From Candidatus Omnitrophota bacterium (GTDB lineage: Bacteria > Omnitrophota > Gorgyraeia > Pluralincolimonadales > Pluralincolimonadaceae): 64,000 nt of DNA. Each line of letters starts with the position of its first letter. Position 1 is the first letter of the stretch. The position numbers and the translations under genes are program-made. The stretch spans positions 8,307 to 72,306 of the forward strand of contig PLNR01000009.1 in the NCBI GenBank assembly GCA_003141835.1, written 5' to 3'. The notes beneath the pieces are model-generated. The model saw only the letters and a program-made list of their open reading frames with translations, made no database searches and was not told where the DNA came from. Below are positions 6,026 to 58,512 of the stretch, in pieces.

Positions 6026-6028
6026 TTG

Positions 6029-12092: not shown

Positions 12093-12146
12093 GAGGTCCG
12101 TCGGTATCTTTATAGGGACGTTCTTAAGAAAGACGATTTTAGTCTC

Positions 12147-16652: not shown

Positions 16653-16663
16653 AGTGAATCTTT

Positions 16664-16692
16664 ATTATAGGAAAATAAACGACTTGCGTCAA
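16664..16692 (-). promoter_or_regulatory. Near-consensus sigma70-type promoter for the fhs operon
   Basis: Read on the minus strand: TTGACG (16692-16687), 17-nt spacer, TATAAT (16669-16664). Only 11 nt separate the -10 from the fhs ATG (16652) and there is no SD, so the transcript may be leaderless or near-leaderless. Confidence 0.5.
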
Positions 16693-16820
16693 GGCATATA
16701 TATTAATTTTCTGGTCACAAGAGGAGAAGGGGCTTACAGAATGTTTACAATTGCGAGAATCAGGAGTTAAAATTGATTGTAGATTGTTAAAATTTCAAGC
16801 GAAATACGCTACGTTAGATT

Positions 16821-19800
16821 TCACTGATCTGGAAATAAGGTAAGAAACTGTATATCGTCAATGTATACAACTCCTTCCATATCGTCCCACTCAAAAACTA
16901 TCTTAAACATCTTAAGTCGACTTATATCTACGTGGCGTTTTACAAAATCTATCAATGGTATATTAACTTTCTGCCAAGAGGTGGTAACAGTTACGTATTT
17001 TTCTAAATCTACGCAGTTCTTTGTATATTCCGCATTTGAACCATCATCTAAATATATATTAGGCTTTTCCCCCCCATTTTTACCCTTTATCCAGAAAGAT
17101 AAAGTGTTGTAATCGGAAACATTTAATCCGTTCAACATCGAAAGATAACCACAGTATGTGCCCGGGGTACCGTCTCTTTTTGCTGCTTTGACGCCAAAAT
17201 AGGATATTTGATAACAATATCCTCTTTCTTTATCATCGAAATAACTTGTTCGTATCTTGCTAAGTCCGTCCCCAAAAACCCAATTACCTCCACCAATTAA
17301 ATTTATAGATTCTCTCCCGACGTTGAAGTCATCCACGATAATAGGCTGTACCTGTTTTGTTAACTGGATATTCTTTATATAAACTATCCCTTCCCTCATT
17401 CCCATCCAATTTTCAAAAGCGAAAGAGAGCCTCGCTATTTTAGACAAATCCAATTCTCCGCCAAAACTTGACAAAGGAATTGCCACCTTTTGCCATTCTT
17501 TTGAAAATTCGCCTGTCAAATAACCCCCTAATGTTACTTTCGGCTCAATTCCATTTGAATCTCTAAGGCCTACTCGTATAAGCTTATTGGCATCCACATT
17601 TTTTACCCAAAAAACCAATGAATTGTAGGCTCGAAAATCCGCCTTCTCTAAGGACGTCCAATAACCCGCATAATCCTTCAAACCAGGAACTTTATAATTT
17701 AGGGCTAATGAATAACCGACTTCTTCACTATTGTAGTCGGCTTTGCATTCTCCGCCTGCCTTCGGATTTGTAAAATAATAAGATTTCCCGCCAAGTTTAT
17801 TCGGAGGTCCTCCGGCATTGAAATCGTCTATGAGGAGTATAGATTTATCTTTTGTATCTTTTACGACTATTTTATAATGTACCGTCTCTGACCAGGCACC
17901 AGCTTTATCTTGGTAGCGAATATGAAAATACCATACCCCGGCTTCCAAATCGCTGAAAATTTTTGACGCGGTACAGCTATCTACCTCATCACCAGGTAAG
18001 GTATCCGGATTTTGGTCTATTAGAGAAGAATAACCCTTTATGGAAACCGCGTCCTCGGTTTCCCAACAAAACAACACTAAATTTGCCTCTTTATTATAGG
18101 ATACGAGGGAATATATTCTTGGTAAATCTAGTTTTTTCGGCTTTTTGGAATAATCCACAATAAAACTGAATCTAGATGTTCCATTTAGCGGATTGCCACA
18201 AAGATCCTCAGCTTCGATTAACTGAACATTAACTTTATCTTTATCCCCAAAAACAATACCGGCCAAGCTGGGACTAAAAGTCAATATCTTGTAATCCGGA
18301 TTGTAACTTAACACTGGGGGGGCGGTCCTGAATATTTTATCGTTTATTTTCACCTTTATCGTTTCTGGATTAACACCTACGCCATTCCCATCTGTTAGAT
18401 TAAAGATTATTTTATCCGGAAATGAATGGCTGCCATCGGAAGGAATAGTTGAATTTACAACCGGCCCTTTGGTATCTACCTTTATCCAATAATGATTTGC
18501 CCTGCCCCAATTTCCCGCCTCATCCTCAGCGCGAACGTGAAAATACCATTCGCCGTCAGCTACATTTTGATAGGAAACAGAATTGTTTCTACCTTCGCTT
18601 TTCGCACGAGGCAAAGTGTCCGGATTTTGATCAAGGCAGTAACTATATTCTAAATCTTTGCTTAAATCATCTTCCGCGAAAAAGGTAAACTTAACATTAG
18701 AATTGGCGAAGCCCAGTTTGGATATTCTGAAATTATCCATAAAATAGGTGGCACCCGTTTTATTTTTCCCATACTCCAATTTCATATACCCCGCCTCATC
18801 CCAATCCGCCATCACTAATTCCTCTATGATAAACACGCCCAACTTTTGCTTGAGCATTTGGTAAAGATTAAATTGAGCAGTATGCCATTTACCATCGGCA
18901 ATGATGCCCTGAACATGTCCTATCTCTTCTATGTTAAGCCGGCGATATCTCTTCGGGTCATCGTTAAATCTAATTTCATACCATCTTCCTTCGATTTTTG
19001 CCAAAAAATCTATTTTTACATCCTTCGGAATTTTATAATCGAAAGAAACTAAGGGATATTCTTTCGCGTCAAATGGTTTTGAGATAACCGTGGAGGAAAA
19101 ATTCCCTCTCTCATTTTGGTTGGTAAATTTCAGGCAATATCCACCCTCTTTAGCCGTATCATCTAACGATAATAGAGCTCCCCTTCCTCTATCACGATCC
19201 GACCAAGAGCCTAAGCCATCTTCGAAGGTATCTTGTATTAAGGAGGGATGCGTAGCGGAGGCAATCTTTGGCGCAGAAGGCGGAGTAAGATCAAGGAAAG
19301 GGATTTTATCCTGTTTATCCGGATCGGCTTTTGATACTACGATGATCATTTCTTTTTCTTGTTTTACGGCAATTATTCTTTCTTTGGGGGAGCTTTCTTT
19401 TGAAACCGCAGCGACGCCTCTGTATATCCCGGTATTGCTACCTGTCTCCAATAACTGAATTGTTATGCCCTTCGGGTCCGAAATACTGCTTAAAATCTTT
19501 ACTTCCGCGGCGTCAATCGTATTAGAGTTTGCATCTTTTCCTTTCATCTCGATATATAGTCTATCCTCCAATTTCAAAGGCTCAGTCCTATGGCTTAAAA
19601 AATCTTTATTCATAACCTTTAGATATTCTATCTGCTGAGGCGAATTCTGGATTACCTCGCATACCACATTTTCAGAGGGCAGGCTTACCTGCCCAAATGG
19701 GTCGGTTGCCCGAGAATAAATAATATTTTCCCCGTCGTTCAACAAAATGTTACTTAAATTAAAAATACCCGTGTCTTTGTCCGATTCTGCTTTACCCTGG

Positions 19801-20798
19801 CTTTGTCCGTTTACAAATACCTCCACCTCTGTATTTGGGTCGGACTCGCCTTTTACGGTTATTAATTTTAACGGAGTAGGCGAATAGGGTTTATAGATAA
19901 TAGGGGGCTGAGGCGGCTTGACTTTAGCCAGTATACAATAATAAGCGACGCCTGAGGTTATACTTGAAACGGGAGTCCTCAGGATATTCTTTTCGATATC
20001 GGAGACGCCGGCCAGATAGTCCCAATTGCCCGTTCTCGGCTCATATGCATATATGCCCAACTTTTTCTCTTCATCCGGCGACTTTAAATCTGTATTTAAA
20101 TAATTCATTTCCAATACAGCGTCTTTGGTAAAACTCTCGCCCTGCGGCCTAATCACATATACTTGCCCTACTAATATATAGCCTTCGGGAATAGTAGCAT
20201 TTTTGTCTATAACAGACCTTATCCCAAAGACCTTGAAAGGGCCATCCATGGCCTGTTCGGGAACGGTTAAAACCACTTTGTTATCCTTGCTTTCAACCTT
20301 TCCGCCGTAAACATTAGGAATTACTCTTCCTACTTCCACGGTAACTCTATCCTCTGCTTTTTCCCCGCCCTTTCCAAATACTGAAAGCTTTACCGTATAT
20401 ATCCCGTTTAAATCAACAGGATGCTCTCCGTAGACATAATTGGAAAGCCCCGTGCCCCAAGTGGCTAAATTGCCATGGATGGTCTGGTCTCCTATGGCGA
20501 GCTCGTCGATATCCACGTTTTCCATCTGAGGACTGGTTGAAGCGATAATTTCAACCCATTCCCTTGGGTCAGGGCCTTCTCCATATTCTACCCTGTATCT
20601 TTCAAAATCTCTGCCGTAGGCTTTGCCGAATATGGGAACATCTCCCCTTACTAATGTGTCTTTGCCGGGAAGATCTATCTTAGCAATAAGTAAGGCAGGA
20701 TTGGACTTTGGATTGGAGGAATTCTCCGCAAAGACCGAGGAATGCGAAATGGCAATTAATCCTATGATAATTACAAACGCTGCCTTCTTGATATTCAC
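16821..20798 (-). CDS. Large secreted surface protein (1325 aa) with Ig/FN3-like repeats and two C-terminal CBM-like modules
   Basis: N-terminal signal peptide (MNIKKAAFVIIIGLIAISHSSVFA). The body is rich in beta-sandwich-type segments. Two C-terminal ~150-aa modules resemble the stand-alone CBM-like protein at 1623-2222. Low GC. Confidence 0.6.
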   Translation of the reverse strand: MNIKKAAFVIIIGLIAISHSSVFAENSSNPKSNPALLIAKIDLPGKDTLVRGDVPIFGKAYGRDFERYRVEYGEGPDPREWVEIIASTSPQMENVDIDELAIGDQTIHGNLATWGTGLSNYVYGEHPVDLNGIYTVKLSVFGKGGEKAEDRVTVEVGRVIPNVYGGKVESKDNKVVLTVPEQAMDGPFKVFGIRSVIDKNATIPEGYILVGQVYVIRPQGESFTKDAVLEMNYLNTDLKSPDEEKKLGIYAYEPRTGNWDYLAGVSDIEKNILRTPVSSITSGVAYYCILAKVKPPQPPIIYKPYSPTPLKLITVKGESDPNTEVEVFVNGQSQGKAESDKDTGIFNLSNILLNDGENIIYSRATDPFGQVSLPSENVVCEVIQNSPQQIEYLKVMNKDFLSHRTEPLKLEDRLYIEMKGKDANSNTIDAAEVKILSSISDPKGITIQLLETGSNTGIYRGVAAVSKESSPKERIIAVKQEKEMIIVVSKADPDKQDKIPFLDLTPPSAPKIASATHPSLIQDTFEDGLGSWSDRDRGRGALLSLDDTAKEGGYCLKFTNQNERGNFSSTVISKPFDAKEYPLVSFDYKIPKDVKIDFLAKIEGRWYEIRFNDDPKRYRRLNIEEIGHVQGIIADGKWHTAQFNLYQMLKQKLGVFIIEELVMADWDEAGYMKLEYGKNKTGATYFMDNFRISKLGFANSNVKFTFFAEDDLSKDLEYSYCLDQNPDTLPRAKSEGRNNSVSYQNVADGEWYFHVRAEDEAGNWGRANHYWIKVDTKGPVVNSTIPSDGSHSFPDKIIFNLTDGNGVGVNPETIKVKINDKIFRTAPPVLSYNPDYKILTFSPSLAGIVFGDKDKVNVQLIEAEDLCGNPLNGTSRFSFIVDYSKKPKKLDLPRIYSLVSYNKEANLVLFCWETEDAVSIKGYSSLIDQNPDTLPGDEVDSCTASKIFSDLEAGVWYFHIRYQDKAGAWSETVHYKIVVKDTKDKSILLIDDFNAGGPPNKLGGKSYYFTNPKAGGECKADYNSEEVGYSLALNYKVPGLKDYAGYWTSLEKADFRAYNSLVFWVKNVDANKLIRVGLRDSNGIEPKVTLGGYLTGEFSKEWQKVAIPLSSFGGELDLSKIARLSFAFENWMGMREGIVYIKNIQLTKQVQPIIVDDFNVGRESINLIGGGNWVFGDGLSKIRTSYFDDKERGYCYQISYFGVKAAKRDGTPGTYCGYLSMLNGLNVSDYNTLSFWIKGKNGGEKPNIYLDDGSNAEYTKNCVDLEKYVTVTTSWQKVNIPLIDFVKRHVDISRLKMFKIVFEWDDMEGVVYIDDIQFLTLFPDQ

Positions 20799-23095
20799 GG
20801 AAGAATGCGGGACGAGACGGTTAAATTCTGTTTGTGTGGATGGGCTGGGCTTTCTAACTCAGCGATAACCTTTTTTTCGGCACCGAGTTCTTTAAGGTGA
20901 GATGCCAATTCGTAATTAGAGCCTTCGTAGGTTTGTCTTTGGCTTAGGCGGTACCTATCCGCTCGTTGTTTTAAGCGGTTTTGTATGTTATCTGAGAAGA
21001 AGTCGATACCTAATTCTTTAGAATGCTGGATGAAGGTTGGGTCTGCTGATATTATGTCCATAAATGGCGTATCCCAACTTGTCCCAAGGAGAAGTTGTTT
21101 TGTTACAGGGGGATCTGCGTGGGGATAGATATAAGGATCGGCGCTTGTAGGCTTAGCAAGCAAGAAAAGTCTATAAACAACTTGAGAAGTTAGCCACTCA
21201 GGAACGTAATTTCCATTTTTATCTTTACCATCCCACGCAGTGAAGTTCGTAACTGTTTTGGAATAACCGCCTGAGTTACGATCTAAAACCTGCACTTCGT
21301 CCTTGAGAACTACAAGGGGATTTATAATCTTTAGCCCTTCTGGCGTATTTACATATAATGAAGCGGATACATTCATATTTTCTGACTGAGCCTCTGTTAC
21401 CGCTTCATCCGTAATAGTAAATTGTGAGAGTGTACCGGAATTCTTTAGCGCGTCTATAAATGGATCTCTGTCTTCATCATAAGGGGGCACATCTATTCCC
21501 CAGCCGTAACTCGCAGGAGGATAATCACCAAAGGTAAAATATACATCTCCGATTATTGGTCGGGACAGATACGCCGTAACCTCATCCGTAAATGTGTCGT
21601 TTTGAGCAAATTCCTCAGCAGGGTTCTTAATTTTTAGACTTAAGGTATTTACGCCAGGGCTCAAAGTAGCCTTAACAAAGAACTCCCCAGGCTCTAATTT
21701 TATCTTTGTTTTATTGCCAAGAATATCTATAACTTCAGGGCCATCTCTTGATTTTAGGAAACCTCTGCCGGGGTACGCATAATAGGGCATGTTAGCTACA
21801 AAATTACCAGGAATGATGTTTTTACCGTTTAATCTCATATATTCCAGCTCTATATCTGCCAATAGGTATTCCTTTATCTTGACTACTATATAGTAATCCA
21901 TATTAGGAGCTCTTTGAGATTCGTCTAATGCAATAACTTTTATGCGCTCAATCTGAGGTTTATCTTCAATGGCCTCAAGGGTCTCTTTAATGGCATTGTC
22001 AGCAACCCCCACATGAAACCCACTTACTTGATAATCAGCTCTAGCTATCTCACCAACTTTTGTTTGACTTGACATAGTCACAATACCATCGCCATTAAAG
22101 ATGGCATTATCTAATGACTGCGATTCGCCAGCTAATGTAGAAAACGTAAAAGGAGAGCTAAGTTTCGACAGTTTATCTACTGACCATATCGCGATTTGAT
22201 GCCCCACAGGGTTGCTTCCGGTTATAACTTTATAATCTGTCGGTACAGCAAGACTATTATTATTCCCTAAAAAGGTATCGTTTGCTGCATAATCTGTGTG
22301 TAATGTAACTGCAAAATTGCTTAAAAGTCCAGAATATGTAGCTTCATAACGTGTAAATGCTGGCGTGCGAAGATCTTTTATTGCATCCCCTCTAGGCTTC
22401 GGCCCTGTAAAATCTAAGGGTGTTAGTAACAAATTAATATGTAGTTGGTTATTAAAAATTTTAGCATAAATCGACGCCCTTTCAACAGCTTCTTTATTAG
22501 CAAAAAGAAGCGGAGAAAATGCTGTATAGGAATTATACGTTATACTTTTAACTGGAGAATCCATCTGCGCATTTCCGTCCCTAACTTGGTTAAGTAACCA
22601 CAAAATACTTGCATACGGAGAACCTAAGTGCGGCGTATCAATAAATACCACACGAAATATTTTATTCTGGTAGGACGGATGTAGAGCTAATAACGAACGG
22701 GTAACCAATCCTCCCATGCTGTGACAAACTATTATAACTTTTCGGTCATTTGCAGATATTTCAGGTGGATAATAAGAGAGGGCTCTATCTATCAAATAAC
22801 TTAATCTAGTTATAATATCAGGAATATGGCTATTATTTTGATTTTCATAATCGCAATTTACAAAATAATAATTTTCACTAACCTGACCAGGATATTTAAA
22901 TTTTTCTTCGATTCCAGTCGTCCAAAAATATCGCCTTAGCTCATCTCTCATCCCTCTCCACATCGCATCGCTTGAATTTAAACCGTGAACAAAAACAATT
23001 GGGTATGGGTAATACGTTTGCTCAGCGTAAGCAAAATTTATGTTTATCATTATAAGAAATGAAATGAGCATAAACTTTCCCGAAATTTTCTTCAT
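20795..23095 (-). CDS. Secreted alpha/beta-hydrolase (lipase/esterase, GHSMGG type) with a long C-terminal extension
   Basis: Signal peptide, then IVFVHGLNSSD (oxyanion region) and the nucleophile-elbow VIIVCHSMGGLVTRS, typical of lipase class 2 / PGAP1-like hydrolases. The ~500-aa C-terminal beta-rich tail has no identified function. Confidence 0.65.
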   Translation of the reverse strand: MKKISGKFMLISFLIMININFAYAEQTYYPYPIVFVHGLNSSDAMWRGMRDELRRYFWTTGIEEKFKYPGQVSENYYFVNCDYENQNNSHIPDIITRLSYLIDRALSYYPPEISANDRKVIIVCHSMGGLVTRSLLALHPSYQNKIFRVVFIDTPHLGSPYASILWLLNQVRDGNAQMDSPVKSITYNSYTAFSPLLFANKEAVERASIYAKIFNNQLHINLLLTPLDFTGPKPRGDAIKDLRTPAFTRYEATYSGLLSNFAVTLHTDYAANDTFLGNNNSLAVPTDYKVITGSNPVGHQIAIWSVDKLSKLSSPFTFSTLAGESQSLDNAIFNGDGIVTMSSQTKVGEIARADYQVSGFHVGVADNAIKETLEAIEDKPQIERIKVIALDESQRAPNMDYYIVVKIKEYLLADIELEYMRLNGKNIIPGNFVANMPYYAYPGRGFLKSRDGPEVIDILGNKTKIKLEPGEFFVKATLSPGVNTLSLKIKNPAEEFAQNDTFTDEVTAYLSRPIIGDVYFTFGDYPPASYGWGIDVPPYDEDRDPFIDALKNSGTLSQFTITDEAVTEAQSENMNVSASLYVNTPEGLKIINPLVVLKDEVQVLDRNSGGYSKTVTNFTAWDGKDKNGNYVPEWLTSQVVYRLFLLAKPTSADPYIYPHADPPVTKQLLLGTSWDTPFMDIISADPTFIQHSKELGIDFFSDNIQNRLKQRADRYRLSQRQTYEGSNYELASHLKELGAEKKVIAELESPAHPHKQNLTVSSRILP

Positions 23096-24240
23096 TTTAC
23101 CTTAACCGTTCCTTCATCTTTGAACAAATCTTCAAGGCTCATGATAGTAATTTTTCTCCCTGCGAATAATGGCCGACTGTGTGCGTCTTTTTTCATCAAC
23201 ACATCAATATATGCTAACTTTTCCCCAGCAGAAGATACAGATGGGTATTCTTTGTAAAAGTCTTTTACTAGCACCCAACCATCATCTTTCTTTCCATATA
23301 TTCCAAAATTTCCGGCAATCAGAAATTTCTCATCTTTTGTGATAGCGAAGCTACTGGGAAGAGCGATTGCATATTCATCGCCATAATAATTAGCTATGGA
23401 GTCAAAATGAGAACTCGATAAAAACAACTTATCTACTAATTCAACATTGCCGTCAGGAATATTTATTAAATAAATATAATTCCCCCTATCCAGCTTGCTG
23501 GAATCACCCGTATAAGAAAATGCTAGCTTATTCTTTGATATTAATTTCAAATCTTTCACATCTCCCCTTTTTGAACCTTCAAATCTATTTTCGGTTATTT
23601 CAGTCAATTTCTTGACAGTATTATCTCTTATAGAATATTCCAAAATGTAATTCTCATGACGCTCATAAAAGTTATCATATCGAACCCCATATAGCTTTTC
23701 CCCATCCTGTGAGATATCAAAAGGAATTATCTCCGGAACTCTTTCTTTAAAATTTCTTCCTGTTATATCAAGGGTGATATAGCGATAATCGCTTGGGATA
23801 CCGCCATAATAGTTATAATACAGAAATATCTTTTTGCCGTTATCATATACTCTAAACCCCAAATTCTCATCCAAGGAGCCCTCAAGCGATTGACTCGGTT
23901 GGATATGCCTTCTGGCGATATGTTTTATCAGTTTTTTCGTTTCGGGATGACTTGCCCTTTCACGATATATGTAAATATCCATTATGGGATTCTTTATTAA
24001 TAAGATAAACTTACCTTGTTCAAAAACCGTCTTATCCCTATGAAGAACAAGCTCAACATAGCAAATTTCATCGTTACTTATCCATTGCGGAAAGGTTGTC
24101 CTTCGCTGTATTTCCTCATATGGCGTAAGTTTAAGTAGAAATACCGGCCCCCAGGCATAAAGCAATATAAAAACTATAAAGGCAATCACAACTAACACAG
24201 GCGTTGTTATTATTCCTATTAATATTTTATTACTTTTCAA
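23092..24240 (-). CDS. Hypothetical membrane-anchored protein (single N-terminal TM, beta-rich ectodomain)
   Basis: N-terminal TM ILIGIITTPVLVVIAFIVFILLYAW and no catalytic motifs. Very AT-rich coding sequence, translationally coupled to the lipase gene. Confidence 0.45.
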   Translation of the reverse strand: MKSNKILIGIITTPVLVVIAFIVFILLYAWGPVFLLKLTPYEEIQRRTTFPQWISNDEICYVELVLHRDKTVFEQGKFILLIKNPIMDIYIYRERASHPETKKLIKHIARRHIQPSQSLEGSLDENLGFRVYDNGKKIFLYYNYYGGIPSDYRYITLDITGRNFKERVPEIIPFDISQDGEKLYGVRYDNFYERHENYILEYSIRDNTVKKLTEITENRFEGSKRGDVKDLKLISKNKLAFSYTGDSSKLDRGNYIYLINIPDGNVELVDKLFLSSSHFDSIANYYGDEYAIALPSSFAITKDEKFLIAGNFGIYGKKDDGWVLVKDFYKEYPSVSSAGEKLAYIDVLMKKDAHSRPLFAGRKITIMSLEDLFKDEGTVKVK

Positions 24241-24261
24241 AGTTGCCTTCTTTCCTATAAA

Positions 24262-27200
24262 TTATTGGAATTCACTATCGGGTATACCAGTATTAATATA
24301 AACATTTGAATATATGTGTGTGGTTGTATACAATAGCTTACCGCCTTCTCCATATACTTTATCAACTTCATTCTGATAACCCCAGGCATTTTCCATTTGT
24401 ACAAAATCTGAATATTCACTTGTATTAATTGTTTCAAAGCCATTTTGTAATATGTGGTACTCAGTTTTTATAATGACCCCTTTCCCATAATCTATATAAT
24501 TAACTACGTAGGGGTATTCGTCAGTTTGCCCTTCCTTTTTAATTTTAACAACATAGATGTTCGATGTAGAATCACCTGAAACGATCTCTTTGCTCATTGT
24601 CGCTACGCTTTCTTCAATAATTGGTCTTATATAAACTCCAGGATTAGGTGAAATTTCTTGTACCTTTTGTTTATTCCCCTTTATCCATATCTTAAGATAC
24701 GTTATAGGCGCGAGAAATGGTGAATTTGAGGTGACTGTAATATCTGCTTTTGTATCCTGTATCATAGAGTCATTTAAGTTTACTCTGGCAATAATATCAT
24801 CTGCGGTCACCGTCAGAAGCGCTGAAGTCGTAATATTAAAGGTCACGGCTACAAAAGGATTGGCATTCGTTGATACCTGAATCTGGGTCAAAGCTAAAGC
24901 TAAGTTTGGACATGTTAAATTTACTTCTGCTTCGCCATAATCAGTAGTAACAGTCGTTGGTGAGGATATAGTTCCTGCGCCTTGTATCACCTGGAAGTTT
25001 ATAGTTTCATTCTGTATTGGATTATTGTTTGAATCAGTCAGTTTTACTATTAAGGGTATTGTGACGGCGGGTGCAGGAGTTACTGAGTCATCTGTAATCT
25101 TCGTAAGTACAGAAGGTTGCGCTGGCTTTGTAGCTACGGAGAAAACAGTTTTGACTAACGGATTGCTGACGGAATGAGCTTCAACCTGGTTTGTTGTCTC
25201 AGAATTAGTATCTGTAGTCAAGGTTATAGCTGCTTCCCCGTTTGCATCGGTAAAGGAGGACGTAGATGATAAGGAGCCGTTCCCTTGGGTTATGCTAAAT
25301 AAGATCTCTTCATTTGGCTCGTGTTGATTATTTTTATCAAGTCTTACCTTTAACGTCTGGTTCGAGCCGGCGCTTGGACAGTTTGGGTCGCCTTGAGTTA
25401 CATCGCCTGAAACTTTAAATAATTCATAATTGGCCAGGTCTGGTGAATTAACTAATATTGAATCGCAAAATTGATTGTTATTGGCATCATAGCCAGAGGC
25501 GGTTACGACTGTTTTAATTGTATCTAAAACTATCTCCTCTGCCGTAAAATTAGTGTTATTAATGAGGGCGGTTGTGGAATTAACCATTATAAGTGAGAGA
25601 TCCGTGGTATTTGTTCCCTGAACATTTATGGGCGATATATCCTGTTCTGCGTTATCCACAGGCGAGGTTATTGTTACTTTTGGAGTTTGGGTGTTATACG
25701 TTATATTAATTTGTTTTTGGTTGGTGTTCCCTGCCTGGTCAGTTGCCTGAATTGTGATCGTATCCGCCCCCTCACTTAAAGTCGGCCTTGCGATGAATCT
25801 AAAGTCAGCTAATGGTTCAATAACTGCACCATTTATTGTAACTATTTGAGCATCATCTGAAACTCTTCCACAGACTATATTGCTTCTGGTAGTTGAGTTA
25901 TTATCCGGGGCATAAATACTTATGCCCGGTGGTGTCGTATCTAATATGACATTTATAATAGCTTGTGTACTTATAGTATCCTTGACTGCCCACGCTGTTA
26001 TTATATTTGTGCCTTCAGTCAAAGGTATATTCGAGGCGATAAAGGTATTATCTGCTACATCGGCTTGTATGTCCCCTATCGTAACAGTTGCTGTATTGTC
26101 ACTTACCGTGCCCGAGATGGTTATTGTGGGGGTATTTACCAAAACATTATCTGCCGGAAAAGTTATGGCAATTGAGAGCGTTACTTCCTCTTGTTGATAG
26201 TTTACGGTTATGGAATTTGAGTTAGATGAGTTGGTTGCCGGGTCGGTTGCAACCGCGACAATTGTATTTGTGCCTTGGGTTAATGGGACACTCGCAGAAT
26301 ATGCCCCGTTTACCGGCACGGGTGTCGCTTTAACCACGTCATTTACCTTGATCACGACAGTCGCCGTGTTGTCATCTACCGTGCCTGATACGGTTATCGG
26401 CGATACAGTTGATGTAGAATTATTTTCGGGAGACGTGATCGCGATTACTGGTGAGGCAGTATCTAATATTATAGTATCGGATACAGCTGCTGACCAGTTT
26501 CCGGCAACATCCTTGAACTTGGCATAGGCTGTCTTGATGCCCTCTCCTGTTGTCAATGTCCAGGATTTAGAAGTTGCATAGACTTCTGGTGTTGACCAAT
26601 TAATGTTATCATTTGAGAACTGCATCTGGCTTAGATCTGAACCGTTATCAGTTGCGGACAGAGTTAGGGTAACTGCGACCGAGTTGGTATATTGTGCCCC
26701 ACTATTGATCGTGACTGTTCCTGACGGGGCTGCAGCATCCAAAAGGATATTGGTTGTAGCAGGGCCGCTCTGATTTCCGGCGGCATCTTCGGCCTTTACG
26801 CTTATACTATTCTCGCCTTCCGCTAAACTTGATAATAAGCAAGACCAGGTAGTGGATGTGGGATAGGTTACCGTGCCTATCGTTGCCGTAGAACAGGTCA
26901 CTATTATAGCGGCTGCATCTTCTGTCTTTGTGCCTGTCACGGTCTGCGAGTTTGCGTTCGTAGGAGAAGTGACTGCATCTATGGTCGGCTGTGCAGGTGC
27001 CGTTGTATCCAATATTATGGTATCGCTTGCGGCTCCGGACCAGTTACCGGCGCCGTCTTTTGCCTTGGCATAGACGGTCTTAGTACCGCTTCCGGAAGGC
27101 AGTGTGTAATTTATTTCCGACGTAGCGGGCTCCGGATCCGACCAGTTAACGTTATCGTTGGAGAACTTCATTTCAGTTATACCGGATTGCGTATCGTAAG

Positions 27201-30200
27201 CATAGAACCGGAGGATCACGGAGGTGCTATTGGTGTAGGGATCATCGAAATTTATACTTAGACTTGTATATACTGGAGGGCTTGTGTCAAGAATTATCGA
27301 GTCATTTGCGGCACCAGACCAGTTACCGGCGACGTCTTTGAACTTGGCATAGACGGTCTTGGTGCCGTTCCCTGTTGCCAGGGTCCAGGATTTCGAGGTC
27401 GAGTAGGCCTCAGCGTCGGACCAAGTGGAATTGTCGTTTGAGAACTGCATCTGGCTTAGCCCGCTACCTGTATCTGTTGCCGAAAGAGTTAAGCTAACGT
27501 TTGCTGAATTGGTATATTGCTCGTCGTTATTTATTACGACTGTACCTGTAGGTGCTGTTGTGTCCGATGGGGTTATCTGTATATTATAAATCTTAAGCTC
27601 ATCAAATATGGCATCGGAGGGCACTCCTCCTTCGCCTCCTCCGCCTATGTATATGTCAGAATTGAAAGTGTCAGGAAGTGCGCCGGTATAGGCAGGTTCA
27701 CCGTTAAATGTCCAACTAACAGGGAGTTGCTGGTAATCAAGGTAGAGTTTCATGCCTGCCGGGCCGTAGGAGGTCGCCAGGTGATGCCAAGTGTTTGCAT
27801 CCCAGAGCCTTGAGGTGGCTGAGACTATGCCGTGCTGGACGCCGTCTTTTACTATCTTAAAATAGAGCGCGTTATCGGAATGTTTGAATATCTCTATACA
27901 GCTGTCCCAGCTCCAGTTGGTTGAGAATAAATGGTGCCAGACGTTATCATCTGAGTTCCAGACAGGCTTAAACCAGAACTCTATCTCCCCTTCCTTCTTA
28001 TTTAGGTCGGCTGAGGAGAATTGGACTAACCCCTCGTTACTACTATCAGAACCGGAGAGATATACTCCGTTTGAGAACTTGGCCGGTACGAAGTTAACGG
28101 TGCCTGTGCCGGTCTGAATTATAGATCCGGAATGGCCGATTGCTTCCGGGGTCTGGATAGAGGCCGCGCTATTTAAGGAGCAATGGAGATTTAATGAGGC
28201 GTCCTCTTCTGAAAGGGTTGTCCTTAAGTGATCCTGGGGAATTGCCATCTTTGGCGTTGAGGCCGAGGAATAGGAGACTTTTGCCGTCGCAAGGCCGCTG
28301 CCATTATAATACTCGACCTTTATATCGTGCCAGCCGGAGGTTAGGTTGACTGTGGCGCTTGTCTCCCCTACACCGTGGTCATACCAGGTGTCTATAAGAA
28401 GTGAGTTATCCACCCAGAGCTTTAGGCCGTCATCTGAGTTGGCATAGAAGGAGTATGTTTCGTTATAGTCGGCTTTGACCTGGCCTGTCCATCTTATAGA
28501 GTATGTGGAGCCCTCTATCGAGCTGTCGGGATAGAACGATAACCAGTCAAAGTCTATGTTCGGGTCAATGCGTCTTATCTTAAGGTTGGTTAAGTCTGAG
28601 TTATCGTAGTATTCGGCCAAGAGGCCGCCGGAGGAGCTATCATTGTTATAATAGAGGTTGGTTGACGGAATAACGGATTTAGCTATGGCAGTTGAGCTCC
28701 AGAGGAGCTTACATACCGCTGAACCGGTGTTCTCAAAATAATCTAGTTCTATATCATAGAGGCCGGGCGATAGGGCAACACTTGCCTGTCTCTCTGTTGC
28801 TCCTCCATTCTGCCAGGCGTCAATTAAGACCTGGCCGTTGACCCAGAGCCTGACTCCGTCATCTGTTGTAGCATAGAAGGTGTAGGTGTCAGAGGCATCT
28901 ATCTTTATCTTGCCCTTCCATTTGGCTGTATAGAGGTCGTTTCCTAAGGCGGCATCGGCCATATTCTCGCCCCAGTCGAAGTTTATTTGGGGGTCTATCT
29001 TAGTCAGGACGTATGAGGTTGGGCCGTAGATGTTAGTATATTTGCTATAGATGCCTTTAAGACCGCCCTGGTTGTATCCTGCCTGGGGCAGCTTGTCGTA
29101 ATAATAGAGATGATCCGAGGGGATTATGGTCTTGTTCGTAGATGAGGTGTTCCAGTAGAGCTTGGCGACAGCCCAGCCTGAACTATTGTAATATTCATAT
29201 TTAATGACATGAAGGCCGGGGTTTAAGTATACGGTCGCCTGGTGGTCTGAAGGGCCGTGGTCGTACCACTCATTTATTATAAGCTGGTTGTCTATCCAGA
29301 GCCGTGAGCCGTCATCTGTAGTCAAATAAAAGGTATAGCTGTCGGCAAAGTCTACCTTTACCTTCCCTGTCCACCGTACTGAGAATGTGGTGGGAGCTAT
29401 CGAGGCCTCCGGAGAATAGTTGCCCCAGTCAAAGTCTATCCTGGGATCGATGCGAGCAACTTTTAAGCCGGTAAAGTCTGAGTTATCGAAGTACTCTGCC
29501 GAAAGCCCGCCTTGGACAGGATCATGGCTATAGAGATCGTAGGCGCCTATGTCTATCCTATTACCTGGTATAGAGGACTCATCGGATGGCGAGCCGGAAT
29601 CTATGCAGGGACTCTCGTTTGCGTCGTTATTGGCTAAGTATTGGAGCTTTAGGAAGTCTGCGGATTCAGGGTCGGTTGATTTAAATAAGGGGTCTAGGAC
29701 AATATCGCCAGGACCAGGAAGTATTCCTCCATAATTCTTTGTGCCGCCTTGGCCGTTATTATAGAGGTCATTATAGCTTAAGACAGCTGAACAATCAGGG
29801 TCCATAACTATGCCATAGCAGGAGGGGTTGTTCAGACCGTTATTTACTATGATGTTGTTTTTGAGATAATTGGGACCGCTGTAATTATTTGACTGTATGC
29901 CGTTTGTGCCGTTGTTATAGATTGTGTTGTTAGAAATAGCGTTGTCATGAGAACCATAACTTAAGTCCACACCCAGCTGGCCGTTAGAGTAGATGAGATT
30001 ATTGTTTACCGCGTTATTACTGGTTCCTCCTACGACTATTATTCCGCCGTAGCCGTTTGAATAGGATTTGTTGCCCTTTACAGTGCAGTAGCTTGAGGAG
30101 CCCTCAAGCCATATGCCTGTGGATGTGTTATTGCGGCAAATATTAGTATCTATAATATTATAGTTGCAGGAGGTATATAGGTATATGCCGCAGGGACGGT

Positions 30201-31176
30201 CGCCTAAGGCGCCTGTTGAGCCGGAGCCGTTTGAGTAACAGGTATTATTTGAGATAACGTTATGATCGGAGGCGTTAACAAGAAAGATACCGCTGTTTGC
30301 GGCATTACGGACGGTAAAGCCGTCTATTTTGATATAGGATGCGCCGTCTAATTTAAAGCCATAGGGGAGTGTGGACTGACCGTCTATTATTACCTCTCCA
30401 TCGGCATGGAAGGTCAATAGCTGGTTGGCAAGACCTGAACGGGTAATTACTACCTGTTCATTATAGGCGCCGGGCTCGACTAGGACTAGATCAGAGGGGT
30501 TAGCGGTATCTGCAGCATGCTGGATGGTAGCCCAGGCGCCGGAAGAGCTGTTCTCGGTTCCGGGGTTATCGTCATCGCCATCAGCACGCACATAGTAGAT
30601 GTTCGCCTGGATGAGCTCGGCGTCGTCGAACTTGGCAGTCAAGTTTGCGTTTGTGCTTATAAAGACAACCCTTACCTTGTTCGCATTAGAAGGCGATATG
30701 GCAGAAATAGCCTGCTTAGCCCAGGCATTGGAAGGGATATTAATAAGCTTGTCCTCCTCGCCCAGCGTAAGGGTATCTTGGCACCAGTAAAGCTTGATGT
30801 AATAATTACCCGTTAGGGTGCCTTGATCCCTTAAGGTCCATATTGAAAATACATAAGGGGTATTTGGCGAGACGCTTACTTCCTGGTATTCGGCGCCGTT
30901 GCCTGAATTTATCCAGGAACACATGGCCGCGCCCCAGCTATCGGTATGATTAGCCCAGGATTCTGTTGTTACGCAGCCGTAGTTCGTCCAATTAGCGGCA
31001 GTTCCCCCGCTTCCGGTGTTGTCCTCGAAGGAAGGATTTAATAATAGATTGGTTGCCGATGCCGAAGGAAAGATGGCAAGCGTGGCGAGCATGAAATAAA
31101 AAAACCAGCGAAAAGCTGGTTTATTGATCAATGACTTATTTGTTCTTGTTACCGCTGGATGCGGGGAGCAATCCAT
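24262..31176 (-). CDS. Giant multidomain surface adhesin-like protein (2304 aa): parallel beta-helix, 3x PA14, LamG-like lectin, repeated Ig-like/FN3-like modules
   Basis: Signal-like N-terminus (KPAFRWFFYFMLATLAIFPSASA). A right-handed beta-helix repeat region (NAANSGIFLVNASDHNVISNNTCYSNG...). Three tandem PA14 domains (GGLSAEYFDNSDFTG...WTGKVKVDFADSYTFYLTTDDGSRLWIDN...). A ConA/LamG-like segment. Three ~97-aa repeats (TAPTGTVVINNDEQYTNSANVSLTLSATDTGSGLSQMQFSNDNSTW...). The C-terminal ~180 aa are very AT-rich. Confidence 0.7.
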   Translation of the reverse strand: MDCSPHPAVTRTNKSLINKPAFRWFFYFMLATLAIFPSASATNLLLNPSFEDNTGSGGTAANWTNYGCVTTESWANHTDSWGAAMCSWINSGNGAEYQEVSVSPNTPYVFSIWTLRDQGTLTGNYYIKLYWCQDTLTLGEEDKLINIPSNAWAKQAISAISPSNANKVRVVFISTNANLTAKFDDAELIQANIYYVRADGDDDNPGTENSSSGAWATIQHAADTANPSDLVLVEPGAYNEQVVITRSGLANQLLTFHADGEVIIDGQSTLPYGFKLDGASYIKIDGFTVRNAANSGIFLVNASDHNVISNNTCYSNGSGSTGALGDRPCGIYLYTSCNYNIIDTNICRNNTSTGIWLEGSSSYCTVKGNKSYSNGYGGIIVVGGTSNNAVNNNLIYSNGQLGVDLSYGSHDNAISNNTIYNNGTNGIQSNNYSGPNYLKNNIIVNNGLNNPSCYGIVMDPDCSAVLSYNDLYNNGQGGTKNYGGILPGPGDIVLDPLFKSTDPESADFLKLQYLANNDANESPCIDSGSPSDESSIPGNRIDIGAYDLYSHDPVQGGLSAEYFDNSDFTGLKVARIDPRIDFDWGNYSPEASIAPTTFSVRWTGKVKVDFADSYTFYLTTDDGSRLWIDNQLIINEWYDHGPSDHQATVYLNPGLHVIKYEYYNSSGWAVAKLYWNTSSTNKTIIPSDHLYYYDKLPQAGYNQGGLKGIYSKYTNIYGPTSYVLTKIDPQINFDWGENMADAALGNDLYTAKWKGKIKIDASDTYTFYATTDDGVRLWVNGQVLIDAWQNGGATERQASVALSPGLYDIELDYFENTGSAVCKLLWSSTAIAKSVIPSTNLYYNNDSSSGGLLAEYYDNSDLTNLKIRRIDPNIDFDWLSFYPDSSIEGSTYSIRWTGQVKADYNETYSFYANSDDGLKLWVDNSLLIDTWYDHGVGETSATVNLTSGWHDIKVEYYNGSGLATAKVSYSSASTPKMAIPQDHLRTTLSEEDASLNLHCSLNSAASIQTPEAIGHSGSIIQTGTGTVNFVPAKFSNGVYLSGSDSSNEGLVQFSSADLNKKEGEIEFWFKPVWNSDDNVWHHLFSTNWSWDSCIEIFKHSDNALYFKIVKDGVQHGIVSATSRLWDANTWHHLATSYGPAGMKLYLDYQQLPVSWTFNGEPAYTGALPDTFNSDIYIGGGGEGGVPSDAIFDELKIYNIQITPSDTTAPTGTVVINNDEQYTNSANVSLTLSATDTGSGLSQMQFSNDNSTWSDAEAYSTSKSWTLATGNGTKTVYAKFKDVAGNWSGAANDSIILDTSPPVYTSLSINFDDPYTNSTSVILRFYAYDTQSGITEMKFSNDNVNWSDPEPATSEINYTLPSGSGTKTVYAKAKDGAGNWSGAASDTIILDTTAPAQPTIDAVTSPTNANSQTVTGTKTEDAAAIIVTCSTATIGTVTYPTSTTWSCLLSSLAEGENSISVKAEDAAGNQSGPATTNILLDAAAPSGTVTINSGAQYTNSVAVTLTLSATDNGSDLSQMQFSNDNINWSTPEVYATSKSWTLTTGEGIKTAYAKFKDVAGNWSAAVSDTIILDTASPVIAITSPENNSTSTVSPITVSGTVDDNTATVVIKVNDVVKATPVPVNGAYSASVPLTQGTNTIVAVATDPATNSSNSNSITVNYQQEEVTLSIAITFPADNVLVNTPTITISGTVSDNTATVTIGDIQADVADNTFIASNIPLTEGTNIITAWAVKDTISTQAIINVILDTTPPGISIYAPDNNSTTRSNIVCGRVSDDAQIVTINGAVIEPLADFRFIARPTLSEGADTITIQATDQAGNTNQKQINITYNTQTPKVTITSPVDNAEQDISPINVQGTNTTDLSLIMVNSTTALINNTNFTAEEIVLDTIKTVVTASGYDANNNQFCDSILVNSPDLANYELFKVSGDVTQGDPNCPSAGSNQTLKVRLDKNNQHEPNEEILFSITQGNGSLSSTSSFTDANGEAAITLTTDTNSETTNQVEAHSVSNPLVKTVFSVATKPAQPSVLTKITDDSVTPAPAVTIPLIVKLTDSNNNPIQNETINFQVIQGAGTISSPTTVTTDYGEAEVNLTCPNLALALTQIQVSTNANPFVAVTFNITTSALLTVTADDIIARVNLNDSMIQDTKADITVTSNSPFLAPITYLKIWIKGNKQKVQEISPNPGVYIRPIIEESVATMSKEIVSGDSTSNIYVVKIKKEGQTDEYPYVVNYIDYGKGVIIKTEYHILQNGFETINTSEYSDFVQMENAWGYQNEVDKVYGEGGKLLYTTTHIYSNVYINTGIPDSEFQ
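26400..27560 (-). repeat. Three near-identical ~290-bp intragenic tandem repeats encoding Ig-like modules of the giant adhesin
   Basis: DNA segments near 26460, 27010 and 27300 share long identical runs (...gaccagttaccggc...tttgccttggcatagacggtctt...). They encode the TxSxxVTINSGAQYTNS...AKFKDVAGNWS repeats. Boundaries are approximate. Confidence 0.6.
28220..29510 (-). repeat. Three tandem PA14-domain-encoding repeats (~370 bp each) inside the giant adhesin gene
   Basis: Three consecutive PA14 domains in the protein; the DNA-level similarity is visible (e.g. ...ccagtcaaagtctat...gggtcgat... recurring). Boundaries are approximate. Confidence 0.5.
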
Positions 31177-31234
31177 AGAGTGAGGTGCTCGCTTAAATTT
31201 GACGGGTTAAGTTACTTTGTGCCCACGTGAGCAT

Positions 31235-31262
31235 ATATTAGCACCTATTTTTCCTTTGTCAA
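31235..31262 (-). promoter_or_regulatory. Near-consensus sigma70-type promoter driving the low-GC adhesin/lipase island operon
   Basis: On the minus strand: TTGACA (31262-31257), 16-nt spacer, TAATAT (31240-31235). It lies in the rlmN-adhesin intergenic region, ~55 nt upstream of the adhesin ATG (31176). Confidence 0.5.
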
Positions 31263-31277
31263 GAAAAATTCTTATGC

Positions 31278-32348
31278 TTAACTTTTGCCTGTTTCGCGCA
31301 GGCGCAACTGTCCGCAGGCGGCGTCGATGTCGGCGCCTTTTTCTGCCCTTACGGTGGAATTGATCCCCGCTTTTTCAAGTATCTCCTGGAAAATCTTGAC
31401 GTCCTTAAAAGAAGGCGGGGCAAATTTAAAATCGGAGACCGCGTTGAACGGAATGAGGTTCACTTTGCAGTTTAATCCCTTCAGCAGTTTGGCGAGGTTC
31501 TGCGCGTCGGTAGGCGAAGAATTGACGTCCTTGATGAGGATATATTCGAAGGTTATTATCCTTCCCTTCCCTTTGGTGTATTCGCGGCAGAATTCCATAA
31601 GTTCGGCCAGGGGATATTTTTTGTTTATGGGCATGAGCCTTGAGCGTTTTATGTCGTCGGCTGAGTGCAGCGAAACGGAAAGCTCGAACTGTTCTTTCTC
31701 CTGCATGAACCGTTTCATTCCCGGGATGTATCCTGCGGTCGAGACGGTTATCTTCCTGGCGCCGATGCCCAACCCCAACGGGGAATTCATTATCCCGATC
31801 GCCTTGATGACGTTATCATAATTGGCAAGCGGCTCGCCTGTGCCCATCATCACCACATTGGTTATGCGCTTGGCCGCGCCGATATCATCCTGTATGGCGA
31901 GCGCTTGGTCGAGTATCTCGCCGCAGCGCAGGTCCCTCTTGAACCCGAGGAGCCCGCTGGCGCAGAAATAACAGCCAAACGCGCACCCAGCCTGCGACGA
32001 AAGGCATATCGTATGCCTGCCTGTCCCGCCGCCTGCGGGATCTTTGGCCGGGATATAAACACCCTCGACCTCCTCGCCGTCATTTAATTTGAAGAGGTAT
32101 TTCCGCGTGCCGTCGGACTTTGAGACCTGTTTTTTTATTATCTCAGAACCGGAAATTAAGAATTTGTTGGTGAGGTAGTCGCGTAGTTTGGAGGGCAGGT
32201 CTGTCATCAGCCCGAATGTCCTGGCCCCTTTTTTATGTATCCACTCGAAGACCTGTTCGGCCCTGTACGGCGGCTCATTGAGGCTTTTAATGCGCGCCGT
32301 AAGCTCGACGAGCGAGAGGTCCTTTATATCCTCTTTATTTTCGGCCAT
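31278..32348 (-). CDS. rlmN: 23S rRNA / tRNA (adenine-C2)-methyltransferase RlmN (radical SAM)
   Basis: Radical-SAM CxxxCxxC (GCAFGCYFCASG) plus RlmN-specific C-terminal motifs. 356 aa. Confidence 0.85.
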   Translation of the reverse strand: MAENKEDIKDLSLVELTARIKSLNEPPYRAEQVFEWIHKKGARTFGLMTDLPSKLRDYLTNKFLISGSEIIKKQVSKSDGTRKYLFKLNDGEEVEGVYIPAKDPAGGGTGRHTICLSSQAGCAFGCYFCASGLLGFKRDLRCGEILDQALAIQDDIGAAKRITNVVMMGTGEPLANYDNVIKAIGIMNSPLGLGIGARKITVSTAGYIPGMKRFMQEKEQFELSVSLHSADDIKRSRLMPINKKYPLAELMEFCREYTKGKGRIITFEYILIKDVNSSPTDAQNLAKLLKGLNCKVNLIPFNAVSDFKFAPPSFKDVKIFQEILEKAGINSTVRAEKGADIDAACGQLRLRETGKS

Positions 32349-45978: not shown

Positions 45979-46036
45979 TAGTATAATTTTTTACGGGGAA
46001 AAATGAAAAAGGCGTGGTCTTTCCGGATTATTCTTC

Positions 46037-46363
46037 CTATTCCTTGATCTTTACGGCCGTCCCATAGGCATATACGTAGCCGCTGTAGGTGAAATACTGT
46101 ATGCCTATCACGGCATCGGCCCCCAATTCCTTTCCCGCGTCCTTAAGCTTGCTGTTTAGGGCGTCGAGATTCACTTCGCCGCCGCGGATCGAGACGATCC
46201 CTATGACCTTATAGGAATCTTTTATGTCCGCGGTGGTGAGGACAATGTCCTTCTGTTTGGCACTCTTTGTAATCATGGTAGAAGTAGGGGGCTGGGCCAT
46301 CACGGTTGACGATAATATGATAGCGCATAAAAGGACGGATATCAGTAATATTGTGCGTTTCAT
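46037..46363 (-). CDS. Small secreted YbjQ/DUF74 (UPF0145)-like protein
   Basis: Signal peptide MKRTILLISVLLCAIILSSTVMA, then ...YKVIGIVSIRGGE...GADAVIGIQYFTYSG... resembling the YbjQ_1 fold. Overlaps the 3' end of the second secretin gene by 4 nt. Confidence 0.5.
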   Translation of the reverse strand: MKRTILLISVLLCAIILSSTVMAQPPTSTMITKSAKQKDIVLTTADIKDSYKVIGIVSIRGGEVNLDALNSKLKDAGKELGADAVIGIQYFTYSGYVYAYGTAVKIKE

Positions 46364-49729: not shown

Positions 49730-49734
49730 TTATA

Positions 49735-51161: not shown

Positions 51162-51164
51162 CTT

Positions 51165-52811: not shown

Positions 52812-52823
52812 ATAGTTATGTAT

Positions 52824-52852
52824 ATTTTATAGGATTAAACAAATGTTGTCAA
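52824..52852 (-). promoter_or_regulatory. Putative sigma70-type promoter for the pilMN...secretin operon
   Basis: Minus strand: TTGACA (52852-52847), 17-nt spacer, TAAAAT (52829-52824), in an AT-rich 81-nt gap. Only 12 nt to the pilMN ATG and no SD. Confidence 0.4.
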
Positions 52853-52892
52853 TTATTTCTTTTCAAAAAGCAAAAAAATACGAATCCGCTGT

Positions 52893-56738: not shown

Positions 56739-56823
56739 ATGCCGGTAATAATACCGCGTTTATCTTATGAATTTTATTTCTTTTCCTGGATAGGAAAAAG
56801 CCGCGATGCCGTTCCTTGGTACC

Positions 56824-58503: not shown

Positions 58504-58512
58504 GGCCTCTCA

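Follow-up and report, generated by a model that had tools for sequence, protein, structure and literature searches.

How did an AT-rich block of four genes for exported proteins come to lie between rlmN and fhs in a genome of Candidatus Omnitrophota, and what might its products do? We addressed these questions in a 64-kb stretch of contig PLNR01000009.1 (GenBank assembly GCA_003141835.1, positions 8,307 to 72,306), hereafter the window, with coordinates counted from its first letter. The block, hereafter the island, covers 14.6 kb, is sharply bounded and is without counterpart in L087, the closest relative that is free of it. Its genes are all on the minus strand and code successively for a giant adhesin-like protein, a membrane-anchored protein (open reading frame 2, ORF2), a lipase/esterase-like hydrolase (ORF3, called the lipase below) and an immunoglobulin (Ig)-rich protein with carbohydrate-binding modules (CBMs; ORF4). 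A preliminary description of this DNA had proposed four co-directional genes between fhs and rlmN, and the ORFs, strands and flanks that we determined confirm it; the Pfam matches also agree with the PA14, LamG, beta-helix, lipase and CBM content that it had listed. We conclude with high confidence that the island is a laterally exchanged and internally recombined cassette of surface-protein genes, which took over a fixed slot from another gene for an exported protein. The explanation as a whole, in which this replacement delivered a contact module linked to a type IV pilus-like machine, appears probable to us.

The slot between rlmN and fhs was compared among relatives of the window genome, using the clade of Fhs proteins at 77-95% identity, whose named members are all Candidatus Omnitrophota. 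Four related lineages are devoid of the cassette, namely L087, L088-91, L003 and L092-95, with Fhs proteins 95, 92, 90 and 87% identical to that of the window, respectively. Collinearity with the window extends to both sides of the slot in these lineages, and a single gene of normal GC content coding for a protein of ~675 residues lies between their rlmN and fhs genes. This protein harbours a signal peptide, its gene overlaps the end of rlmN, and the GC content at third codon positions (GC3) of the L087 copy is 0.74. It belongs to no Pfam or NCBIfam family and has no homologue in the window. The gene occupies positions 7927-9954 in L087 and is also present in L003, L088-91 and L092-95; the L087 and L003 copies are 71% identical, and the slot of L088-91 additionally holds a Methyltransf_21 gene on the opposite strand.

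Alignments with the relatives place the fhs-side junction directly upstream of the -35 box of a shared fhs promoter candidate, and the rlmN-side junction within the last rlmN codons. The neighbouring promoter and coding sequence are thus intact at both junctions. Based on the slot contents and the junction alignments, the event was the replacement of 2.0 kb by 14.6 kb. The fhs promoter candidate is common to island-bearing and island-free relatives, and divergence starts just upstream of it. At the other end, the near-consensus promoter that had been proposed for the island was found, preceded by a TG; this candidate was recognized by consensus match only, and its sequence is not present in the island-free relatives. 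The earlier description had also viewed all the genes as coupled by 4-nucleotide (nt) overlaps. This holds for two of the three gene junctions (ATGA and GTGA), and at the third a gap of 21 nt lies between the giant gene and ORF2, a GGAAAGAAGG ribosome-binding-like motif preceding a TTG start. The coordinates of the island and of the features discussed are collected in Table 1.

Table 1. Coordinates of the island, its genes and related features in the window
Feature	Position	Strand	Basis and remarks
Island	16700..31293	(-)	Collinear homology with L087 (86-87% nt) ends at 16699 and restarts at 31294; junctions aligned
fhs	14973-16652		NCBIfam; flank
rlmN	31278-32348		NCBIfam; flank
Sigma-70-like promoter candidate, TTGACA-N16-(TG)cTAATAT	31235..31262	(-)	Just past the rlmN stop codon; 10/12 matches, TG extension
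fhs promoter candidate, TTGACG-N17-TATAAT	16664..16692	(-)	Kept intact immediately outside the island junction
Giant exported adhesin-like protein, 2304 residues	24262..31176	(-)	Pfam, NCBIfam
LolA-like (PF17131) C-terminal domain of the giant protein	24265..24564	(-)	19.4 bits, E = 9e-4, under the Pfam cutoff of 30
ORF2, type P, 382 residues	23092..24240	(-)	N-terminal transmembrane helix, then beta-propeller
Exported lipase/esterase-like alpha/beta hydrolase (ORF3), 766 residues	20795..23095	(-)	Pfam PGAP1/DUF676
Predicted catalytic triad of the lipase	Ser126 22718-22720; Asp336 22088-22090; His361 22013-22015		Invariant in 24 homologues; present in the window sequence
ORF4, exported Ig-rich protein, 1325 residues	16821..20798	(-)	CBM_4_9-like and C-terminal CBM11/CBM30-like domains (Pfam)
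Allele-swap block, about 3 kb	21968..25000	(-)	Last ~245 codons of the giant gene (LolA-like tail), ORF2 and lipase catalytic domain; left edge approximate, about +/-100 nt
Type IV pilus/type II secretion system (T2SS)-like locus, outside the island	43309..62249	(-)	Pfam

The cassette occupies the rlmN-fhs slot only in the window and in one other lineage (L096/L083), whose Fhs (P0177) is 95% identical to that of the window. Over 11.6 kb of core sequence, the nucleotide identities are 86.3% between the window and L087, 84.8% between the window and L096 and 85.0% between L096 and L087. This near-equidistance shows that the two cassette-bearing genomes are not sisters to the exclusion of L087. 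ORF4 and the part of the gene for the C-terminal half of the lipase are 91.9% identical in nucleotide sequence between the window and L083 (400-nt bins mostly at 91-96%, the lowest at 86.5%). At fourfold-degenerate sites, ORF4 of the window and L096 reaches 84.3% identity versus 50-69% in nine adjacent core genes, and surface-protein genes are normally not more conserved than fhs. Because of this excess, the cassette must postdate the separation of the two genomes. It appears to have been exchanged between the window and L096 lineages, or taken from a common pool, after their divergence. The evidence for age and incongruence consists of identity comparisons of three genomes rather than of a formal tree reconciliation, and for these three a conflict between cassette gene tree and species tree is already indicated. 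The horizontal acquisition suggested beforehand is thus supported by the synteny check, with four related lineages devoid of the four genes and a cassette younger than the core.

These observations bear directly on the alternative that the four genes were inherited vertically and lost by the relatives, their AT-richness being a gene-class effect of selection or mutation bias on such surface genes. We regard this alternative as improbable. The presence of a different gene in the slot of four related lineages calls for replacement, loss alone being insufficient, and the fourfold-site identity of ORF4 relative to the core genes is incompatible with co-divergence. The core flank is itself mosaic over positions 5001-16600: the bins at 5001-8200 are nearer L087 (85-94%) than L096 (73-88%), and some bins at 9401-12200 are nearer L096 than L087. 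This mosaicism suggests ongoing homologous recombination among lineages that are ~85% identical.

No integrase or transposase domains were detected in the four island proteins with Pfam and NCBIfam, and the repeat search detected none, direct or inverted, that bracket the island, but only the internal domain repeats of the giant gene. The latter are diverged direct repeats of 50-287 nt at 26446-29511, 60-78% identical, and they represent tandem duplications of PA14 and Ig-like domains, not mobile-element repeats. The sole tRNA gene of the window is at 2281-2357, 14.5 kb from the island, and no Rfam family was found anywhere in the window. The earlier statements that integrase, transposase and flanking direct repeats are absent and that the nearest tRNA is 14 kb away were therefore accurate. 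The absence of att-like repeats along with that of an integrase and a tRNA, and the intact state of the neighbouring genes, fit replacement through flanking homology. A classical integrative element, be it a degenerate genomic island, an integrative and conjugative element, a prophage or a transposon whose recombinase or transposase has since been lost, is very unlikely to us. Such an element would fit the mobile-element genes beside homologous cassettes in other genomes: in L187, a gene for a Y1 (IS200-like) transposase follows the lipase gene at 12361-13041, ORF4 being missing there, and in L189 small GIY-YIG ORFs flank the giant gene at 2813-3085 and 8813-9130. These genes are possible traces of other ways of moving or breaking the cassette. 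The rlmN-fhs slot itself displays a clean gene-for-cassette replacement with the adjoining promoter and coding sequence preserved, which argues against such an element, as do the lack of the sequence signatures listed above and the absence of any family member on viral contigs. The viral-contig scan yielded weak generic matches only, with no close family member and no evidence for a phage vehicle.

The window stems from a metagenome assembly (match to a 443-kb contig of ENA ERZ27254250) and its composition changes abruptly at the island, as it would if sequence from a low-GC organism had been fused with a 53% GC genome during assembly or binning. The chance of such an artefact is minute in our view. 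Identical proteins were found on five contigs, four of them of 0.2-1 Mb. Furthermore, the L096-type Fhs occurs on 21 contigs, and in every shown place that extends upstream of fhs there are cassette genes; in several independent assemblies, L096-type contigs have fhs and the homologous cassette joined. Finally, the sequence of the fhs-side junction is common to the window and L096, and both junctions lie inside continuous conserved core sequence.

The island is not of one piece. Between 21968 and 24474, it has zero nucleotide similarity to the sister cassette L083/L096, and at 24400-25000 the identity is only 70-74%, versus 83-96% on either side. Over 22,001-24,800, the window is 67-81% identical to L084, a cassette found in an unrelated genomic context. 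The lipase records the exchange within a single protein, its two parts having opposite nearest relatives: residues 1-376 are 32% identical to the sister protein P0002 and 80% identical to P0003, and residues 377-766 are 88.5% identical to P0002 and 29% identical to P0003. The lipase is thus a domain-precise chimera, and the ~3-kb block comes from a different cassette allele lineage than the rest of the island. A swapped module at the C-terminus of the adhesin had been suspected before; the suspicion was right in substance, and the block is larger than thought, as it extends across three genes and starts ~245 codons before the end of the adhesin gene.

The AT-rich tail of the adhesin gene is a distinct feature from the start of the swapped block. 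It had been estimated at ~180 codons and actually amounts to about the last 650, GC3 dropping from 0.48-0.61 to 0.31-0.38 at about codon 1650. This break coincides with the joint between a lineage-specific N-terminal extension and a core of ~640 residues common to all cassettes. Accordingly, residues 1669-2304 are kept in every cassette, at 44-65% identity; residues 191-1426 are 53% identical to the giant protein of L189. From N- to C-terminus, the giant protein is composed of a signal peptide, a beta-helix, three PA14 domains, a LamG domain, an Ig-like stalk and a LolA-like domain. Its Pfam matches are Beta_helix/NosD, 3x PA14, Laminin_G_3, Big_13, 4x Glucodextran_B and Big_1, and the stalk comprises an OmpL47-type domain followed by the Big_13, the four Glucodextran_B and the Big_1 domains. 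The giant protein, the lipase and ORF4 have signal-peptide-like N-termini and ORF2 starts with a membrane anchor, as read from the sequence; all four are therefore predicted to be exported by Sec. The amino acid identity of ORF4 is 91% to its L083 counterpart and 58-62% to those of L085 and L185.

The lipase consists of a catalytic domain (residues 1-376) and a beta-sandwich/helical tail (residues 377-766). PGAP1/DUF676 and further alpha/beta-hydrolase models of Pfam match residues 32-200, and no NCBIfam family was found. The motifs HSMGG around Ser126 and GDG around Asp336 surround the predicted catalytic residues, and the nucleophile elbow conforms to G-x-S-x-G. The closest solved folds are the Bacillus licheniformis lipase BlEst2 (6wpx) and the Archaeoglobus fulgidus lipase (2zyh), then Bacillus subtilis LipA and the PHB depolymerase PhaZ7; a sequence search of the PDB gave marginal matches only (BlEst2, PGAP1 and one unnamed alpha/beta hydrolase). 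BlEst2 and the A. fulgidus lipase, the best sequence and fold matches, share with the island enzyme an N-terminal alpha/beta-hydrolase domain with a Ser-Asp-His triad and a C-terminal beta domain. Nevertheless, the identity to them is as low as about 12% and the whole chains superpose poorly (template modelling score, TM, of 0.2-0.35), and the island enzyme differs by its PGAP1/DUF676 signature and by a longer C-terminal part that evolves as a separately exchangeable module. These features are consistent with ORF3 being a lipase- or esterase-like enzyme, a candidate for ester or lipid hydrolysis.

ORF2 belongs to no Pfam or NCBIfam family. Its AlphaFold2 model, of good quality (predicted local distance difference test score, pLDDT, of 82.6; predicted TM score, pTM, of 0.84), has a helix at residues 2-30, with the rest being all-beta, and Foldseek returned generic propellers only, without a functional lead. 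A few of its 16 homologues bear PD40. The ORF2 slot alternates across cassettes between two unrelated types of proteins: type P, with a transmembrane helix and a beta-propeller, is found in the window, L084 and L185, and type M, a multi-pass membrane protein of 182-220 residues, in L083/L096, L187 and L189. The sister cassette L083/L096 thus has an unrelated, polytopic protein of 220 residues at this position. No NCBIfam family was found for the short ORF2 type. In L085, the slot holds a membrane protein of 211 residues without detectable similarity to type P or M.

The en-bloc exchange of the LolA-like tail, ORF2 and the catalytic domain suggests that they interact, and such an interaction could correspond to a lipid-handling unit, or to an enzyme with a cognate inhibitor or chaperone. 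One possibility along the latter lines is an effector-immunity or effector-chaperone pair, in which the lipase would be an antibacterial or anti-host membrane toxin and ORF2 its immunity protein or dedicated foldase. We consider this doubtful. The exchange of ORF2 together with the catalytic domain, the alternation of the ORF2 slot between two unrelated membrane proteins, as in immunity slots, and the predicted envelope location of both proteins fit a pair of this type. As in the Tle-Tli pairs of type VI secretion systems (T6SSs) and in LipA-Lif pairs, a hydrolase gene is adjacent to the gene for an envelope protein, and here they were exchanged together. The 64-kb window is nevertheless devoid of T6SS, Rhs and contact-dependent inhibition genes, and no relatives of Tle, Tli or Lif were found for the lipase and ORF2 by PDB sequence or fold searches, neither a Tle effector nor a Tli immunity protein being matched. 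Unlike in the known pairs, the ORF2 gene is upstream of the hydrolase gene and codes for either a beta-propeller protein or a polytopic membrane protein, and the window copy, a beta-propeller, differs from the alpha-helical foldases of the Lif type. Furthermore, type P ORF2 is also paired with a distant lipase clade in L185, and thus the pairing is not strict.

Lateral exchange of the cassette agrees with its distribution. A profile search of 1.84 billion protein representatives collected 76 family members at E <= 1e-30. Homologues of the lipase and ORF2 are few, and the named ones come from Omnitrophota, plus one from Aureabacteria. A metagenome scan with the lipase alignment detected only distant generic alpha/beta hydrolases, as its back-translated patterns (IV[AC]HSMGG and similar) were too unspecific, and it added no further cassette locus. 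The gene order found in the window, i.e. a Big-domain or giant protein, a small membrane protein, a lipase and usually then an ORF4-like protein, recurs in six other contexts (L083/L096, L084, L085/86, L185, L187 and L189). The content of the cassette varies at its 3' end: at the ORF4 position, L084 (12199-15920) has a gene for a 707-residue protein that has two segments in common with ORF4 and is devoid of the CBM30 end, followed by a GT2 glycosyltransferase gene of equally low GC content.

Several of these contexts connect the cassette with a pilus apparatus. The window harbours, outside the island, a type IV pilus/T2SS-like locus with genes for a pseudopilin, PA14 and beta-helix proteins, a T2SSK-like protein, a PilM-PilN fusion, a TPR protein and two tandem secretins, then polA. 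Its tandem secretins are paralogues of 371 and 374 residues and the PilM-PilN fusion has 548 residues (46360-52811, minus strand); upstream of them are genes for large PA14 and beta-helix proteins and for a weakly T2SSK-like protein of 869 residues, an arrangement that recurs in L189. In L185, the cassette is directly downstream of the PilMN and secretin genes, in L187 it comes after pseudopilin genes, and in L189 the giant, ORF2 and lipase genes have a PA14 gene on one side and pilMN on the other. The L189 locus and the 43-62 kb region of the window are syntenic (PA14 protein, PilMN, two small ORFs, TPR protein, two secretins and PolA), the amino acid identities ranging from 35% for the PA14 protein to 68% for PolA. 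The link to a secretion locus ~15 kb away that had been suggested in the preliminary description is therefore strengthened, with homologous cassettes beside or inside a locus of the PilMN-secretin type in three genomes. The pilus/T2SS-like locus is probably the functional partner of the cassette, and that the two work together is a proposal that we make with moderate confidence. Substrates of T2SSs carry no defining sequence motif by which the island proteins could be recognized as such.

The base composition of the island has to be read in light of these other loci. Over 1-kb segments, GC is 0.35-0.49 across 17-31 kb versus 0.50-0.57 outside. The GC3 values of the giant, ORF2, lipase and ORF4 genes are 0.47, 0.32, 0.32 and 0.39, respectively, versus a mean of 0.672 (sd 0.052, minimum 0.539) for the 41 other genes of the window, which gives z-scores of -3.8 to -6.7. 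The island is thus compositionally distinct, as had been judged by eye; the 58-60% GC assigned to the flanks was too high, as they are at ~50-57% (56.7% for fhs and 52.2% for rlmN). Outside the island, mild dips to a GC content of 0.45 are found in two genes of the pilus locus without family match, at 49735-50409 and 52893-54128, whose GC3 values of 0.58 and 0.54 are the lowest of the remaining window. The vertical-inheritance alternative would account for the nearly constant GC content of the cassette across hosts (ORF2 0.31-0.39, lipase 0.35-0.40, ORF4 0.34-0.41), while the flanking genes span about 0.37-0.57. It would also account for the fact that the N-terminal part of the giant protein has the highest GC3 among the cassette genes in L189, likewise in the window. 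This constancy equally fits a module that moves too often to ameliorate. Within the window, the other large surface genes, with PA14 and beta-helix domains, have GC3 values of 0.59-0.61, and hence a simple gene-class effect within the genome fails to explain the shift.

A number of points weigh against our interpretation of the island as a laterally acquired contact module. The background for its composition consists of the 41 other genes of the 64-kb window only. The ORF2-lipase pair averages a lower GC3 than non-cassette neighbours in all five other loci with flanks, including those of the low-GC hosts L085, L185, L187 and L189, the deficit being about 0.10 in L085, L185 and L189, 0.16 in L187 and 0.34 in L084. 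It is below every non-cassette neighbour in four of the five; the exception is L185, where the GC3 of one neighbour falls between those of ORF2 and the lipase. The AT-richness of the cassette may thus be partly intrinsic, and low GC alone is no proof of recent arrival. It is therefore the slot comparison and the divergence data that carry the claim of lateral arrival. The simplest mechanism would be recombination in the conserved flanks, argued from the absence of alternatives and, for L096, from the fhs side of the slot, and a tract of raised identity between the window and L096 was sought inside fhs and none was seen. The LolA-like match of the window copy is below the Pfam threshold; homologous tails reach 25.7 bits in L084 and, above the cutoff of 30, 35.3 bits in L187. 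Finally, all functional statements derive from similarity of domains and folds and from gene neighbourhood, and the recombination mechanism, direction of transfer, secretion route, substrate and biological role are what we infer.

With these points in mind, lateral replacement can be set out as follows. The cassette entered a lineage of ~53% GC laterally and displaced the 2-kb gene that lay between rlmN and fhs, most likely through homologous recombination in the conserved flanks and not through site-specific integration. It would have brought its own promoter and kept a donor-like composition of about 35-45% GC. During or after the spread of the cassette, an internal block of ~3 kb was swapped for a divergent allele. 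The four Sec-exported proteins and the type IV pilus/T2SS-like secretin machine would form a contact module, in which the long adhesin would present carbohydrate-binding heads, and the esterase/lipase and the CBM protein would act on the bound surface, i.e. the envelope of another cell or a polymer. We assign low to moderate confidence to this role in attachment and in ester or lipid hydrolysis on another cell or polymer; an attack on the lipids of another cell is what we infer from it.

The fhs gene heads a compact folate methyl-branch cluster (9086-16652, minus strand) that is conserved in all relatives. It codes for Fhs, an FTCD_C cyclohydrolase-like protein, FolD, a DUF5981 protein (MTHFR C-terminal-like), MTHFR, a Met_synt_B12-like protein of 206 residues and a MetH-like/corrinoid methyltransferase of 805 residues. 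This content is in keeping with reports of an acetogenic or Wood-Ljungdahl-type metabolism in some Omnitrophota. In L088, one assembly of the relative with a 92% identical Fhs, the MetH-like gene seems to be disrupted at 15379-17117, with an ORF of 388 codons on the opposite strand and a B12-binding remnant of 86 residues. It is intact in L089, and the disruption could be an insertion or an assembly difference.

Surface loci exchanged via flanking homology are well known, such as the O-antigen cluster between galF and gnd and the pneumococcal cps locus between dexB and aliA. The island resembles these replacement-type flexible islands in its fixed slot between housekeeping genes, the non-homologous contents of the slot in relatives and its low GC content. 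It shares with them as well the lack of integrase, tRNA and repeats, the cell-surface location of the products and a recombination mosaic. In contrast, its cargo consists of four large exported proteins and not of a cluster for polysaccharide synthesis, and the genomes compared here are ~85% identical, i.e. they represent different species and not strains.

Closer to the organism, giant adhesin-like ORFs of Omnitrophota have been described with Laminin_G_3 and other adhesion domains and an association with type IV pilus/T2SS-type machinery, like the giant protein of the island (PMC10066038; bioRxiv 10.1101/2023.11.21.568195; bioRxiv 10.64898/2026.06.07.730766). The mobility of such loci has been noted as well, and the adhesin-like and giant ORFs have been connected with type IV pili and with a lifestyle inferred to be epibiotic or predatory. 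With 2304 residues, the island protein is far under the >20-kb 'giant ORF' class. A four-gene cassette with a lipase is absent from these papers, in which the words 'lipase' and 'PA14' occur zero times, and literature on a lipase cassette in Omnitrophota or Velamenicoccus yielded nothing specific.

A more far-reaching proposal is that the cassette is a lipid-harvesting or membrane-attack attachment of the type IV pilus-like machine of Omnitrophota, the LolA-like tail, ORF2 and the catalytic domain being one co-adapted unit. We put it forward as a speculation that is unlikely on present evidence. If true, such a unit would explain the en-bloc exchange between lineages; with a host or prey cell captured by the adhesin and the CBM protein, it would remove acyl chains from the envelope of that cell or import them.

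The bacteria of the Omnitrophota have not been cultured, are mostly ultra-small and are suspected to live on other cells or to prey on them, and the molecular tools that they use for this are largely unknown. The cassette is small and rare; it recurs across the phylum, travels between lineages and is repeatedly tied to a pilus/secretin apparatus. The candidates that it supplies are an adhesin, an enzyme whose catalytic triad is intact and a choice of two membrane partners. The cassette also provides a clean, well-bounded case of gene-for-cassette replacement between uncultured genomes ~85% identical in their sequenced core genes, with a domain-precise chimeric enzyme. As an evolutionary phenomenon this is ordinary and would not surprise a specialist; the cassette is useful as a candidate toolkit for cell-surface interaction in these bacteria.

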